In this document: positions 27,054 to 39,810 of the stretch, in pieces | Layout: every line of letters begins with the position of its first letter | Numbering within the stretch: position 1 is the stretch's first letter | The notes under the pieces: model-generated | What the model was told of the DNA's origin: nothing | What the model saw: only the letters and a program-made list of their open reading frames with translations | Databases searched by the model: none | Assembly (NCBI GenBank): GCA_030867685.1 | Contig: JAQOWU010000008.1 | Location: 558,001-622,000 of the forward strand | Reading direction: 5' to 3' | Length of the DNA stretch: 64,000 bases | DNA from: Wickerhamiella versatilis | Taxonomy: Eukaryota | Program-made: the position numbers and the translations under genes

Positions 27054-27095
27054 CTTGTTCAATAATTATCGATGATGTAATAAAACGGTTCGGCT

Positions 27096-33332: not shown

Positions 33333-35228
33333 CTAGCTTTTTGAAAGAAATCCTTGATAGGCCTCTTGCGGAATAAATACTCTACCAGTGGCCTGCAGGT
33401 TCCGCTTGCCCTCTTTTTGTTTTGCCAAAAGCTTCTTTCTTCGGGAAATATCTGAAGCATGCAGTCGGGCTAATACATCTTTCCGCTTAGCCTTTATCGT
33501 CTCTCTCGCGACTATTTTTGAACCACAACGTGCTTGAATTATCACCTCAAATAGTTGATATCGAAGATACTGTCGGAACTTCTGGACCCATTCCCTTCCT
33601 TTTTGCTGGACTTGCGACGAATGCATTACCCTTGCCAGCGCATCGACTCCGTGGCCATTAACTAGAAGTTCCAGCTTCACTATATTTGATGATTGATAAC
33701 CCGCATCCTCATAATCTAACGCTGCGTATCCCCTGGTAATGCCTTTGAGTTTACCAAAGAAGTCCTCAACGAGTTCTGCGAGCGGGAGCAAAAAATTGAG
33801 CCTTACCTGTCCATTTGCAAGGTATTCGACATCAGTCTGTTGTCCACGATTTGCAATAGCAAGTTGAATTACCGCTCCCATATATTCAGGAGGACAATGA
33901 ATGATAGCACTTACAAACGGTTCTTGTAAATCCTTCACACCGAATGGTCCCGTGGTTACTTGGGGAAAATCATCAGGATTTGTGATTATCTTCGTTGTGT
34001 AATTTGTGTCAATGATCTTATAAGGTACAGTTGGAGCCGTGAAAATCAATCTACCTCCGTGTTCTCGTTGCAAACGCTCTTGGAATACACTAGCATGCAA
34101 AGTTCCCAAAAATCCGAGCCGCCATCCTTGACCCAGTGCATTGGAACTCTCTCTTTGAACAGTAACCGATCGATCATTTAGGGTAAGCTGCTCCATATTC
34201 TCCTCCATCTTCTCAAAGCTTGCACCTTCACCAGGGAATGCGCCAAGGAACACCATGGGCTTCGCTTCTGCGAATCCAGGTAGAGCTCGTGATTTACTAG
34301 AATTTACTGGTAAGAATGTGTCTCCAATGTGTGCCTCTTGGCTTTTCTTCATTCCTGTGATAATGTAGCCCATCTGACCAGCTCGCAGTTGTGGAAGAAT
34401 CACTCGCTCTGGATACATAATACCAACCTCTCTCACATCATAAACTTTACCTGTATGTGCAGAGACCACGCGCGTGCCCTTGGTAAGAGTACCATCAACA
34501 ACGTGAACAAGCATGACTACCCCCAAGAAATTATCGAACCACGAATCAACAAGAAGTAGTCTAAAGTCATCCTGAATTCTTCCATGAGGAGGTGGTATCC
34601 TTTCCACAATAGCTGGCAATACCTTTTCAACGTTCTTTCCGGACTTTGCAGAGATAGCTATTGGGTCCCCTAATAAAAAAATATCGAGTAATTGTTCTTC
34701 TACCCTTTCAACATCGGCATGTGGCAGGTCGATTTTGTTAATCACTGGCACAATTTCCAGACCTACATCCTGCGCCAATGTGAAGTTCGCCACAGTTTGA
34801 GCTTGAACGCCTTGGGTCGCATCTACCAGGAGTAATGCACCACTGCAGGCGGCATAAGACCGAGCTACCTCATGTCTGAAATCCACATGACCTGGCGTAT
34901 CCACAAGATTTAGCAAGTAGTCCTGCCCTTTATAGTTATATATCATGGAACAAGTCTGCGCCTTGACTGTAATACCTCGCTCACGTTCCACATCTAATTT
35001 GTCCAAAATCTGACTCTTAGATGTTTGCTTGTCAATAACACCTGTGATCTCTAAAAGACGATCGGACAAAGTGCTTTTACCATGGTCAATATGAGCTGCA
35101 ATCGCAAAATTCCTATATCTGTCCTGAGGGATCGCAGCAAGTTGCTTGACAAAACCATCAGATGGTATATTAGAATCAACTTTAAGATTCTTCTTACTTG
35201 AAAAAGCGCGGACCAGCCGCCTCAACAT
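33333..35228 (-). CDS. GUF1: Mitochondrial translation factor Guf1 (LepA/EF4)
   Basis: AHIDHGKSTL, ERERGITVKAQ, DTPGHVDF, GWRLGFLG.LH. Confidence 0.97.
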   Translation of the reverse strand: MLRRLVRAFSSKKNLKVDSNIPSDGFVKQLAAIPQDRYRNFAIAAHIDHGKSTLSDRLLEITGVIDKQTSKSQILDKLDVERERGITVKAQTCSMIYNYKGQDYLLNLVDTPGHVDFRHEVARSYAACSGALLLVDATQGVQAQTVANFTLAQDVGLEIVPVINKIDLPHADVERVEEQLLDIFLLGDPIAISAKSGKNVEKVLPAIVERIPPPHGRIQDDFRLLLVDSWFDNFLGVVMLVHVVDGTLTKGTRVVSAHTGKVYDVREVGIMYPERVILPQLRAGQMGYIITGMKKSQEAHIGDTFLPVNSSKSRALPGFAEAKPMVFLGAFPGEGASFEKMEENMEQLTLNDRSVTVQRESSNALGQGWRLGFLGTLHASVFQERLQREHGGRLIFTAPTVPYKIIDTNYTTKIITNPDDFPQVTTGPFGVKDLQEPFVSAIIHCPPEYMGAVIQLAIANRGQQTDVEYLANGQVRLNFLLPLAELVEDFFGKLKGITRGYAALDYEDAGYQSSNIVKLELLVNGHGVDALARVMHSSQVQQKGREWVQKFRQYLRYQLFEVIIQARCGSKIVARETIKAKRKDVLARLHASDISRRKKLLAKQKEGKRNLQATGRVFIPQEAYQGFLSKS

Positions 35229-35287
35229 TGAATTTTGTCCTTAACACCGTTATGCTAAGAGCGGTTAGTAATAGAGTCGACCTCGGT

Positions 35288-36175
35288 TTAACTAAGTCTC
35301 AGTACCTTCCACCCGCGGCCTATAGGAGTATTGAATCCTTCGATCCATCCACCTCCAATGCATTCATATAAAATCCATTCAAGTGAAATTCCTTGCAAAT
35401 TGCGCCAGTAGTTCTTTCCCTGATCTAGCCTCTCTTGAATAATATTTTCTGGCAATTCTCGCCACTTACGATTAGAACTCAACACTTTTAAAAGCCAGGA
35501 ACGAGCATTTTGTAAAAGTTTCAAGTAAGAACCTTGTCCAGGGATACTTAGCATGTAAATTCCTGGTCGCGAGGGATCTAAGGTTAAAAACCCCTCTGAA
35601 ACCAGCTGTTCCGGATCGACAACGTCTAATAAGTCTCCCTTTTTGATCCATGTAGATTCAGGGTTAGCTTTAAGTAACTGTATAAAAGTTTCGTTTCCTG
35701 ACATACTGTAATAAGTTTCTGCGTTTATCAGGAGATCATTCGTGTCGGATAGATTAGTCGTGATGAGTCTTACGATCCCAGCTTTTCGCGCCGCGATAAT
35801 TTCCTTGTCAATTGTAGTCATATCATTGGGAAAAATCCCGTAAAGCTGGTTTGCAGTCACAATGGGGGGGCACCGCTGGCGGAATTGATGAACATCTGCA
35901 GCAACTTTATAGTATACGCCTTTATCTGGAATTGGAATGAACATACGTGCAAGTATAGAGTTCATAGCAACAAGTAAATCCGTATCTGGAGAAGCTTGGC
36001 CATCAGGAAACGCTGGACCTTTGTTTTCAAGCTTTTCAACTGCTTCCTGAGTACTTTTACGCTGATCTTCTAGCTTCCTTAAAATTCCCACATCACCTGG
36101 TAGCATTGGCATTTGTGCCTTTCCCTTAGGTCGTGGTTTCCGCCACTTTAAAGAACCGGTCACATTCAGAGGCAT
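35288..36175 (-). CDS. STK19-family winged-helix protein
   Basis: PPIVT..QLY, LVSEGFL, LSIPGQGSYLK, GISLEWILYECIGGGWIEGFNTPIGRG resembles the Stk19 domain (recognised from memory). Confidence 0.65.
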   Translation of the reverse strand: MPLNVTGSLKWRKPRPKGKAQMPMLPGDVGILRKLEDQRKSTQEAVEKLENKGPAFPDGQASPDTDLLVAMNSILARMFIPIPDKGVYYKVAADVHQFRQRCPPIVTANQLYGIFPNDMTTIDKEIIAARKAGIVRLITTNLSDTNDLLINAETYYSMSGNETFIQLLKANPESTWIKKGDLLDVVDPEQLVSEGFLTLDPSRPGIYMLSIPGQGSYLKLLQNARSWLLKVLSSNRKWRELPENIIQERLDQGKNYWRNLQGISLEWILYECIGGGWIEGFNTPIGRGWKVLRLS

Positions 36176-36404
36176 TACTGATCACGTAATATTTTAGCTT
36201 CACGACGTATCGACCCGGGACTCAAAGGCTCGGAGACTCAAAAGATCAAAAAGACTAATAATTCTTAACTAATATGAATAAGTCGTAGAGAATTAAGCGT
36301 AGCGCAATTCACAGACAGGGTTGCTTGTTTCGAAGCCTGCTAAAATATAGTATCATTGAGATGTATACAGATGTAGCAGCTGATCGAGCAGATTTCAAGG
36401 CAGA

Positions 36405-37346
36405 TCACCACGCAGCACTGCCACCAAATCCAGCAGCTGAGGCGAGATCATCTGCATTGAGTAGAGCTACGCCCTGGTCAACAAGGACCTTCCATACTGC
36501 GTCTCTTGTACTGATAGGCCATGCAGGTGTATTCCAGAACCTTGCACCTATACCCTTGCTTTTCGCGCCAGCTATAAGAGACTGAATCTTTTCAATCTGC
36601 TTATCAGAGAAATTTCCACTAATAGTTCCCACTGCGGCTTCAAAGTCAGTGCTAGCGATCAGACTGATATCACTAGTCACATTGTTCTGGGTGGTATTCA
36701 ATTGTGTTAGTTGAGCATCAAAGAAAACATCTCGGTGGTTGTTCTCCTCTACCATATTAAGAGGGGTGTTTCCTGTGCCTATCACTGTTACGGGGCCATA
36801 ATTGACATGGCTTCCATTATATGACGTCAGATAACCAGCATCTCTTAATGGCTGAAGCTCCTTTATGACATAGGGGAGAGTAGCGCTACCGTCAGTCTTT
36901 AAATCCACGAAAAGATAAAGCGTCTGAGTGTGATCAGTGTCAAAAACACCATTTTTTGTCGAGGAACCGAATACAAACTCTGAAGCTGGATTCTGTCTCT
37001 TCACTGTTTCGAGAATAGGCTTGACGTAGAGCGACTCGAAAGTCCTTTCCTTTTTCAATGCAGAACGCATGTGACCTACGTACAACGTGCTGTTATAGAG
37101 CCAAACATCGGCCTCGGTACTGATACAACCATATGATAGGCCAGTGAAGAAGGGAACATCACGCCAATAATCATTGTGCGAGTGTATGGGTTTTGGCACG
37201 ATACCTTGAGTAAAGTCTGTTGGATACTTATAAAGGGAATCGTTCAATGAAGGTTTTAAGAGATCTGTTGCATTATTCTGCAGCACAAATTTCGCAACAA
37301 CCACCGACAAAGTCGTTAGAGAAATTGCGAAACAGAGAAATTTCAT
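36405..37346 (-). CDS. Secreted PLC-like phosphodiesterase (AIM6 family)
   Basis: Signal peptide MKFLCFAISL..., HSHNDYWR, CISTEADVW, LYVGH, LFVDLKT, GARFWNTP, LLNADDL. Confidence 0.88.
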   Translation of the reverse strand: MKFLCFAISLTTLSVVVAKFVLQNNATDLLKPSLNDSLYKYPTDFTQGIVPKPIHSHNDYWRDVPFFTGLSYGCISTEADVWLYNSTLYVGHMRSALKKERTFESLYVKPILETVKRQNPASEFVFGSSTKNGVFDTDHTQTLYLFVDLKTDGSATLPYVIKELQPLRDAGYLTSYNGSHVNYGPVTVIGTGNTPLNMVEENNHRDVFFDAQLTQLNTTQNNVTSDISLIASTDFEAAVGTISGNFSDKQIEKIQSLIAGAKSKGIGARFWNTPAWPISTRDAVWKVLVDQGVALLNADDLASAAGFGGSAAW

Positions 37347-37405
37347 AACGACAAAAAAAAATTACTCGAATGTAATGTAAAGTGTCACGACGAATTACCG
37401 TACCG

Positions 37406-37446
37406 AGCACGTGCTTAGTTAGCACGTGCTTAGTTATATCACGTGC
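37406..37446. promoter_or_regulatory. Cluster of three CACGTG E-boxes, two within a perfect 15-bp tandem repeat
   Basis: AGCACGTGCTTAGTT at 37406-37420 and 37421-37435; CACGTGC at 37440. Confidence 0.7.
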
Positions 37447-37544
37447 TGTGCCATAATCTTTTACGAACTATCTCCAGGTCCCAACGGCAATTCTCTCTTC
37501 TATCCGGCTCATAAAGCCATATACCATTAAAATGTACAATTTCA

Positions 37545-37617
37545 GCCATTATAGCTTAGTTGGTAGAGCGTTGCACTCGTAATGCAGAGGTCTTCGGTTC
37601 GACTCCGAATGATGGCA
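37545..37617 (+). tRNA. tRNA-Thr(CGT), intronless, followed by a T6 Pol III terminator
   Basis: Acceptor GCCATTA/TGATGGC, D arm TAGCTTAGTTGGTAGAGC, anticodon arm TTGCA-CTCGTAA-TGCAG, T loop GGTTCGACTCC; TTTTTT at 37618-37623. Confidence 0.96.
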
Positions 37618-37745
37618 TTTTTTGGACCACCCTTAAAAATTGCATATCTATTCCAGCATATCATGATAGAATTGCTGGGGTAGCTTTTTTTACCTGTAAA
37701 GTATCTTTAATGTTAAATTGAGCTATCTGATCACGTAATTAGCTA

Positions 37746-39810
37746 ATGCTCTTGTTAGCAACTGCCATTGCGCAGTACGTTGCTGGTTGCGGCGTGACGT
37801 AAGTTCTTTTAACAATTTTGCAACAAATGTACTAACAAAAGTGTGCATCAATCGCTAGTGCGCCGTGGAATTTCGACTGGGGATATTCCTCAGTCAGTAT
37901 TGAGAGAAGCCAGCTATCTTCGTGCTGGCGCATTTTATCCAGATGCTTTTTATGGTTGCATGGGTCAATCTGATGCGGCAGAGGCTGCACACTGGCCTCC
38001 ATTCCTTTACGAAGGTGCAAAGCTTGTTCGGGAACGCCGTGCCATAGGAAGTGACACTTCCAAACTTGAAGCATTTCTCATAGGGGTATTAACACATCAA
38101 GTTTCAGATGTAAGCTGGCATTCATTAGGGATTCATCAAGGCTTGCTTTGTGCCATGGCCGATAGGGAATTTGATGGTGACTACGATTCCGCTCATTCGT
38201 GTTTGGATACCGGTGGAGACATGATCCAAATGCACAAGCTAATCTCAAGTGAAGATAATTATGACTGGCTTTTTGACCCATGGGATTACTCCTTGACGGA
38301 TATTCAGGGTATCCTTCAGCCTTTGGGTTACCATATAACAAGACCACAATTATCTTACTGTATGTCAAGAGGGCAAGCTGCACTCAAGGCAGAGAAGAAT
38401 GTGGCAGAGGCTGGCTATAGAATGTACGCTCGACGAAGTCCTTTCTTATACGATGAGTTGAATGATTATTATGTTGGTGGTATGAAGGACATGCATCAGC
38501 AGATCGCTGAATGTCTTCCTAATTTATTATCATGGTTCAAAAATGCTCCAAATACTACCGATCCATATGATATTTGCCAGGTGTTTGACGGTATGAGACC
38601 AAAAGAACCAGGTCCCGGTGATATCCACCTCAGCATCCCATTTCATAAGGACACTATTAAGGATCTGTTTTTTGACGTCAAGAGCTCCCTGAAGTCTTCA
38701 AAAAGATATAAATCAAATTACAGTCTCAAGGTTAAAGGCTCAGTTCCCGAGGGAGAACTGGGGAGTCAAGTGGTAGCGTGGGGTCATTCCCACTGGGCCG
38801 TCGCGGCTCCGGCTGAATCAAAGGTGTATGTGTATGATCATAATGCAAGTCTTATAGGTGTTTTATCCGGGGGACGAAAACAGAATGGTCGTTTCAGTGA
38901 TGAATTCGGGTCTGCTTTGAATGTCTGGCCCACTCGTGACAAGAAATCGCTCTTGATTGTTAGCAGCCCGGGTGCGAATCGCATCGACTTATTTGATGAG
39001 AACCTCAGGTGGTGTGGAGGTCTTAGCTGGTCATCGGCGCAAGAAACATATGGTAGTGCCGGCTCGGCAAAACAAGTAGGTCGTTCTCTCGCTGTAGATC
39101 CCAACTATCGTACATTATTTGTCGGTGCGCCTTACTTTGACGATAGAAATAACACAGTACCTCAAGCTGGGGCTGTATATGCAATTTCTGCAAATTTTAT
39201 CGAAGATTCCATTCGCCAAAAGCGGGTGTCAAACGTTTCCTGGGATCCGTTTTACGTCGGTGAAACCAACTATTCTAGGGCGGGTACAAAACTCGCTAGT
39301 ACCCAGAGGTTCCTTCTCGTTGGGTGTCCAGGAGAAAACAAGGTACACGGCTTTGATCGTCTTACTTTCAACAAGATTTTAACATTGGAAGCGGATGGAA
39401 ATAATACGGGATTTGGCGGCTATCTTTTGGATGCCAATCATGATTACATTGCTATCGGTGCACCCAGCGATACAGAAGGGCATGCCGGCAAGATTTATAT
39501 CTACAAAAATACCCAGAGACGTGTTATATCTGTAGGTGGTGATATGACATGGTTCGGATATAACGGCATGCTAAATGGCAGGCGGCTAGTTGTGACATCC
39601 CCATATGCAAATTCTGAGCAGGGTTTATTATGGCAAATTGATCTGAATAGTAACGAGGTCACACAATTGAATGCTGGGCCTGAGCCCTACAGTGCTGCTT
39701 ATGGAAAAAGTATAGCCACCAATGGAACTAGAACCATCATTGGTATGCCGCGTTATCAAGAGGGTAGTGGTGGATTTGTATTTTATGATTTGTTAGATTT
39801 GGGCCGATAA
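37746..39810 (+). CDS. GPI-specific phospholipase D (GPLD1) homologue; 2 exons (37746-37798, 37842-39810)
   Basis: Spliced N-terminus MLLLATAIAQYVAG-CGVTVH; GAFYPDAFY, AEAAHW, THQVSDVSWH, AHSCLDTGGD; FG-GAP-like repeats (FVGAPY, AIGAP, IIGMP). Confidence 0.85.
37799..37841 (+). other. 43-nt spliceosomal intron
   Basis: GTAAGT donor, TACTAAC branch at 37830-37836, AAG acceptor; removal joins the signal-peptide exon in frame (AC|T = Thr). Confidence 0.9.

Follow-up and report, generated by a model that had tools for sequence, protein, structure and literature searches.

Transposons and retroposed copies leave target-site duplications, and circle-mediated integration of foreign DNA is known from wine yeasts. 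For the W/S clade (Wickerhamiella and Starmerella), a mould-derived gene of the AIM6 family is already on record, as a single row among the 133 such genes listed by Brito et al. (2026, PMC13376923). This Wickerhamiella versatilis gene, JCM_5958_gene_v001_02487, is named AIM6 by PANTHER, classed as 'HGT Pezizomycotina' and assigned to OG0000556. It lies between GPLD1 (02485) and GUF1 (02488) in a 'Middle' domain, and is expressed at about 47-57 TPM. In the published table, OG0000556 has one copy in eight W/S genomes, while its frequency reaches 0.86 across the other yeast families and 0.85 across Pezizomycotina, a distribution that argues for loss and regain. The mechanism by which xenologues are incorporated is outside the scope of that paper, which states uptake and relocation in the W/S clade as open and proposes that xenologues relocate gradually to central chromosome regions; its main text has no match for 'tRNA' or 'target site'.

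The corresponding locus is described here from the window, that is, the whole 64-kb stretch of DNA that was analysed. A first-pass annotation had proposed that a block carrying an AIM6-like gene and a tRNA gene, bounded by a 13-base direct repeat, was inserted between STK19 and GPLD1 with a target-site-like duplication. The horizontal origin of the gene being already published for its syntenic counterpart, the footprint of such an integration would, if true, be the only new thing. The reading favoured in this work, with a little better than even confidence, is that the two 13-mers arose independently as start elements at a known xenologue. The weights attached to this and to the other readings are judgements and were not computed.

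Genes and transcripts of the locus

The features of the locus are collected in Table 1. Between the two copies of the repeat lie the AIM6-like open reading frame and the tRNA gene, as the first-pass annotation had it.

Table 1. Position of the features in the window
Feature	Position	Strand	Remarks
STK19-like gene	35288-36175	-	native yeast, 295 aa; Pfam PF10494, E 2.7e-42
13-mer copy 1, CTGATCACGTAAT	36178-36190	+	exact match; 2 nt from STK19-like ATG
Element in copy 1	36181-36190		one mismatch to ATTACGTAAT; 5 nt from STK19 ATG
AIM6-family PLC/GDPD-like phosphodiesterase gene	36405-37346	-	313 aa, intronless; probably Pezizomycotina-derived
Three CACGTG boxes	37406-37445 (at 37408, 37423, 37440)		62-99 nt upstream of AIM6-like ATG
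tRNA-Thr(CGT)	37545-37617	+	only Rfam match
13-mer copy 2, CTGATCACGTAAT	37727-37739	+	exact match; 6 nt from GPLD1 ATG
Element in copy 2	37730-37739		same element as copy 1; 6 nt from GPLD1 ATG
GPLD1 (GPI-specific phospholipase D) gene	37746-39810	+	native yeast; Pfam PF00882, PF14312

Both flanking genes are closest to those of yeasts. The best named relative of the STK19-like protein is that of W. sorbophila (50%), and the best matches of GPLD1 come from the W/S clade and other yeasts. GPLD1 has a 43-nt intron (37799-37841), the splice joint of which is found in 26 reads, and its 3' end overlaps that of the mitochondrial IF3 gene by 28 nt (39783-39810). Relatives of its N-terminal domain at 25-35% occur in five prokaryotic genome records. 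One of these (L005 in the series L004-L008), a contig of 8 kb from an uncultured bin, may represent contamination with eukaryotic DNA; a metagenome scan with GPLD1 returned nothing viral. The open reading frame of STK19 is intact and transcribed in the window, although the genes listed for W. versatilis do not include a separate model of STK19 between 02487 and GUF1 (PMC13376923).

The RNA evidence comes from one raw-read run with the same species label, unstranded and read to 24%, and its resolution is in the tens of bases. Within these bounds, the AIM6-like gene has the deepest coverage of the three genes (up to about 325), with a 5' end near 37361 and 3' ends near 36340 and 36302. The read ends of STK19 pile up at 36156 and the depth over GPLD1 rises only from about 37750, so that both transcripts start about at the elements of Table 1. 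A depth of about 15-19 persists over 36151-36310, between the 3' ends of the AIM6-like RNA and the start of STK19, which suggests either read-through over the first 13-mer or that the leader of STK19 is longer. The segments 36189-36198 and 36339-36348 form a perfect inverted repeat of 10 nt, the second arm of which coincides with the transcript end at 36340; this is probably due to chance.

The tRNA gene has an identical copy elsewhere, with other flanks and at similar depth (X15 record 3, 0 differences over 74 nt), and the foreign 3' flank of that copy is the same in runs X15 and X19. Because the identical copy has other flanks, tRNA-Thr(CGT) is most likely a multicopy gene of the host. The 13-mer is not part of it. 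Assembled contigs join the whole locus, from STK19 to the AIM6-like gene (X20 record 14), from that gene to the tRNA (X19 record 13) and from the tRNA to GPLD1 (X15 record 4). The AIM6-like gene is thus physically part of the yeast chromosome, is expressed, and is not contamination.

The AIM6-like protein and its promoter

The AIM6-like protein is modelled as a TIM barrel (pLDDT 90.5), which matches GlpQ from Bacillus subtilis, GDPDs and bacterial PI-PLC, with 23 matches at E<=0.001 and TM-scores of 0.4-0.5. An HSHND motif is conserved together with H57, N58, E78-x-D80, H92 and D148-x-K150, a residue set that we take to resemble the catalytic residues of PI-PLC and GDPD. The Atlas clusters name the protein AIM6, at 0.98, while no Pfam family was assigned at the cut-off and no relative with a solved structure was found by sequence. 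Its hydrophobic N-terminus and seven N-glycosylation sequons suggest that it enters the secretory pathway. It is probably a secreted or membrane-anchored phosphodiesterase, predicted from its fold and residues to act on glycerophosphodiesters or phospholipids and to release phosphate or head groups from them. Literature searches on the function of AIM6 yielded nothing relevant.

The first-pass annotation had drawn attention to three CACGTG boxes in this region. All are present, but the first two stem from one 15-bp tandem duplication. The clustering of 3 of the 16 sites of the window within 32 nt has a p of 0.00025, which becomes about 0.1 when the two tandem copies are taken as a single site. 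Since CACGTG is established as the box of Pho4, one may guess that the AIM6-like gene has a role in phosphate scavenging under Pho4-type control. Searches of the literature yielded no paper that treats AIM6 together with Pho4.

Origin of the AIM6-like gene

The possible horizontal origin raised in the first-pass annotation has gained support from protein matches, from a tree and from the published call for the syntenic W. versatilis gene (PMC13376923). The AIM6-like protein is closer to Pezizomycotina than to its yeast homologues, while both neighbours are yeast-like. Among the best 120 of 1792 AIM6-like matches, all 54 proteins that bear the name of an organism are from genera that we place in Pezizomycotina, at up to 64%, against 42% for Aim6 from Yarrowia. 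A C-terminal AAGF...W tail is common to the AIM6-like protein and those of Rhinocladiella, Xylona and Stipitochalara.

For phylogenetic analysis, 249 rows passed the coverage filter, and sets of 66 and 40 were picked by hand, with Yarrowia as the one named Saccharomycotina protein. In a maximum-likelihood tree of 66 rows (IQ-TREE), the AIM6-like protein and a relative at 72% lie inside a 42-row clade of Leotiomyceta with support of 98/97. A Pezizomycotina mould within Leotiomyceta is thereby supported as the putative donor. Two narrower candidates were not upheld in this tree, namely Xylona as the sister (90 in FastTree) and Chaetothyriales as the donor, as read from the best matches.

The same data bear on a reading in which the gene is a vertical paralogue, lost from other yeasts and in place since early, with nothing inserted at all. 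Approximately unbiased (AU) tests leave several yeast or yeast-like groupings unrejected: p was 0.29, 0.23, 0.15 and 0.07 when the AIM6-like protein was joined with Yarrowia or with three yeast-like proteins, and 0.33 when Leotiomyceta were held together without the query. The sole constraint to be rejected, and weakly (p 0.04), was Pezizomycotina as a whole without the query. The family also has several fungal paralogues. This vertical reading is nonetheless very unlikely, as the best tree nests the gene in Leotiomyceta, the identity to moulds exceeds that to Yarrowia while the genes on either side have their nearest relatives among yeasts, the C-terminal tail is that of the three moulds, and the family is absent from 7 of the 8 W/S genomes in the published table (PMC13376923).

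Age and mobility of the block

By composition the AIM6-like gene resembles its host, ranking 31 of 43 in GC3 and 21 of 43 in codon index. A relative shares 72% protein identity over the AIM6-like gene, 77% over STK19 and 72% over GPLD1. In this relative, the AIM6-like gene and STK19 are on contigs of one and the same length, 43,108 nt, whereas GPLD1 has a different contig. Host strains show the same pattern, which would be expected if the repeated tRNA broke assemblies there. On this circumstantial ground, the relative seems to have the same arrangement as the window. The event accordingly seems to lie so far back that a neutral duplication would not have remained identical.

The block is present in all four runs, with haplotypes up to about 3% apart, and no joint skipping it, as an empty allele would give, was found in any of the four. 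Within the block no transposase, recombinase or integrase, no terminal repeats and no poly(A) tail were found, and its two ends, compared in inverted orientation, agree at 5 of 20 positions. A metagenome scan with the AIM6-like protein returned no relative on a viral contig.

These observations concern a reading of the block as a recent or mobile cassette, either transposon-like or an integrative element targeted to the tRNA, with the 13-mers as a neutral target-site duplication. What recommends it is the joint occurrence of a direct repeat, a tRNA gene and a foreign gene. It is the least probable of the readings weighed here, since the recombinase or transposase and the terminal repeats are missing, the block is in all runs examined despite the divergence of their haplotypes, codon use is host-like and the best mould protein reaches only 64%, no viral contig holds a relative, and the repeat lies outside the tRNA gene.

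A start-proximal element in both copies of the repeat

The window holds exactly two exact copies of CTGATCACGTAAT, at both ends of the block and at the distances from the two start codons that the first-pass annotation had given. As a bare repeat, the pair is not above chance: exact repeats of at least 13 nt in direct orientation number 40 in the window, against 37.7 in Markov simulations, which also predict 3.45 within 3 kb. The right ten bases of the 13-mer, however, differ by one mismatch from the palindrome ATTACGTAAT, and this near-palindromic element recurs at gene starts. Allowing one mismatch, it is found in the 60 nt before the ATG of 7 of the 43 genes of the window, where shuffles give a mean of 0.25 and coding windows 0.14%; allowing two, in 15 of 43, against 2.3 in shuffles. 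With the focal genes left out and 40 nt considered, the counts are 5 of 41 genes with one mismatch (0.19 in shuffles) and 13 of 41 with two (1.6). In a de novo ranking of 8-mers at gene starts, related words are at the top and the same word comes first. The enrichment before start codons over shuffles shows that a start-proximal element of this genome is real.

Of the 15 genes that have a site when two mismatches are allowed, 7 have the element overlapping the start codon, the last two bases of the 10-mer being the AT of the ATG. Sites at start codons extend over 1009-56400 of the window (for instance 16071, 16391, 17687, 23707, 40378, 45422, 52685 and 56400). A post hoc count of ACGTAAT gives 8 occurrences for the plus strand and none for the minus strand. 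By its consensus, the element is likened here to the Yap/AP-1-type response element (TTACGTAA). Its enrichment at gene starts is shown statistically, and as a putative bZIP/Yap-like element it may be bound by a factor of that kind. No paper tying this start element to Wickerhamiella was found in the literature. Most likely, each 13-mer works today as the start element of its flanking gene, STK19 or GPLD1.

These results bear out the alternative offered by the first-pass annotation, in which both copies are instances of a promoter motif at start codons, as the element is enriched at gene starts and covers 10 of the 13 bases. Identical 10-base cores are also found at unrelated genes, in 3 other pairs of 91. 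The remaining three bases set the focal pair apart, for its shared run of 13 is the longest among the 91 pairs of 14 element instances, the next being 10. The chance that two start-proximal elements have a 13-base run in common is about 0.001 for a pair named beforehand (a resampling estimate); by arithmetic it is 0.016 for one of 13 neighbouring pairs and about 0.1 for any of the 91. Even with the element accounting for ten of the bases, the match thus stays at about 0.001 per pair. Two start-proximal elements with 13 bases in common are unusual.

A shared element as a possible site of integration

The match and its geometry have suggested another explanation, held here as a real but lesser possibility, in which STK19 and GPLD1 once shared a single element centred in a gap of about 21 bp. 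The incoming piece, tentatively, would have been an already domesticated AIM6-like gene together with a copy of the tRNA. It might have entered through a staggered break, with duplication of the element as a result, or by crossover of a circle through microhomology at this widespread element. Each flanking gene would have kept a copy of the element, so that the insertion was tolerated and the repeat survived.

Several observations agree with such a duplication. The match is exact over 13 bases, the longest of the 91 pairs and improbable by chance, and the repeats are in direct orientation although the genes are divergent. Removal of the block and one copy leaves the two start codons 21 nt apart, as the first-pass annotation had claimed and as recomputed here, with a single element in the middle, 5 nt from one and 6 nt from the other. 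Another short divergent gap, of 42 bp, has such a shared central element (at 27072). The linkage of STK19 and GPLD1 is also older than the AIM6-like gene, as set out below, and xenologues have been proposed to move by degrees into the central parts of chromosomes (PMC13376923).

The reconstructed gap itself counts against it, as all 12 divergent gaps of the window are longer. The first-pass annotation had likened it to gaps of 24-45 bp elsewhere in the window; this holds for 3 of the 12, while the other 9 measure 71-1022 bp. The TAGCT said to follow each copy does so directly at copy 2, but at copy 1 four bases intervene. This loose extension of the repeat would favour duplication, yet it is polymorphic, the A of the TAGCT near copy 1 (36196) being G in three of four runs (X23, X20 and one of two X19 haplotypes). 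The event would moreover predate the split from the relative at 72-77% identity, and unselected flanking bases should have drifted since. Nor was a terminal repeat, a poly(A) tail or an empty allele found.

Gene order in relatives

If the block was inserted between adjacent genes, STK19 might be expected directly head-to-head with GPLD1 in related yeasts. As far as the available gene lists and contigs extend, this order was found in none of five (W. sorbophila, W. domercqiae, St. bombicola and the two loci L001 and L002). In W. sorbophila, one protein accession (PRT54023.1) stands between STK19 (PRT54022.1) and GPLD1 (PRT54024.1). No paper identifying PRT54023.1 was found. We take strain DS02 to be the B9G98 genome of W. 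sorbophila. As DS02 is among the eight W/S genomes of the published table, in which only W. versatilis has OG0000556, PRT54023.1 is probably not AIM6. The presence of a gene at this place nevertheless leaves some room for the vertical paralogue. It counts against duplication of a shared promoter, since a direct head-to-head ancestry then needs an extra loss.

STK19 and GPLD1 are closely linked on two further contigs, of 15,963 and 8,482 nt. Together with W. sorbophila, these indicate that the linkage predates the insertion, so that the two genes may have been direct neighbours in the immediate ancestor. The order listed for W. domercqiae and St. bombicola is another gene, STK19, CCDC47 and GUF1, and GPLD1 of W. 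domercqiae is 331 gene numbers away from STK19, behind unannotated genes. A metagenome scan with an STK19 alignment gave three loci, of which two are from distant CTG-type yeasts (L001 and L002) and one is a fragment. The neighbour of STK19 in the two CTG-type loci is presumably a gene for an L9-type ribosomal protein. A CCDC47-like gene follows STK19 in both and is missing from the window (35228-35288); in the W. versatilis list, CCDC47 is far away, as gene 05212. By these lists, the stretch is rearranged in this lineage and CCDC47 has moved.

Interpretation

Of an insertion with target-site duplication, the direct repeat at both ends and its exact 13-base match stand, while no empty allele was found and the predicted adjacency is lacking in the five relatives. 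In the reading favoured here, that of independent start elements at a known xenologue, an ancestor of the W/S clade would have lost the native yeast AIM6 gene, and the lineage would have regained a gene of the family from a Pezizomycotina mould of the Leotiomyceta, in an old acquisition with no mobile cassette. The acquired gene would now sit in a gene-dense stretch between STK19 and GPLD1, with its own promoter bearing CACGTG boxes. The 13-mers would have arisen separately, each as the element of its flanking gene, with the three flanking bases matching by chance, and the tRNA-Thr(CGT) gene would be an ordinary second copy of the host. Against independent origin stand the direct orientation of the 13-base match and its centred geometry, roughly a 1-in-1000 coincidence for the pair. 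The focal pair also flanks the only xenologue among the 31 W. versatilis gene rows compared from the published table (PMC13376923).

It is accordingly conceivable, though the less favoured view, that the locus preserves the footprint of an integration into a 21-bp two-way micro-promoter, with duplication of, or recombination through, the single shared start element, so that each neighbour kept a promoter. No horizontally acquired insertion that duplicates a bidirectional promoter was found in the literature. If such a footprint were general, the start element would be a landing microhomology by which W/S xenologues move from chromosome ends to the core, a move that has been proposed in the literature without having been traced so far.

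Comparison with known systems

The published W. versatilis gene 02487 is of the same family and in the same gene order as the gene of the window, and was matched to it on those two grounds; the published table gives it no function or role (PMC13376923). With the AIM6 family, of PLC-like TIM-barrel proteins with GDPD and PI-PLC folds, the protein of the window has in common the fold and the set of histidine and acidic residues, whereas its structural matches reach TM-scores of only 0.4-0.5, with no Pfam assignment at the cut-off. Target-site duplications and the circle integrations of wine yeasts resemble the locus in that a foreign gene is flanked by a short direct repeat. The locus differs from them in that neither element ends nor an enzyme, a poly(A) tail or an empty allele were found, and in that the repeat is itself a common promoter element. 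That element is like the Yap/AP-1 response element in being a near-palindromic 10-mer that has ACGT at its core and is enriched upstream of genes; the difference is that in this genome it sits within about 30 nt of the start codon, often overlapping it, at unrelated housekeeping genes.
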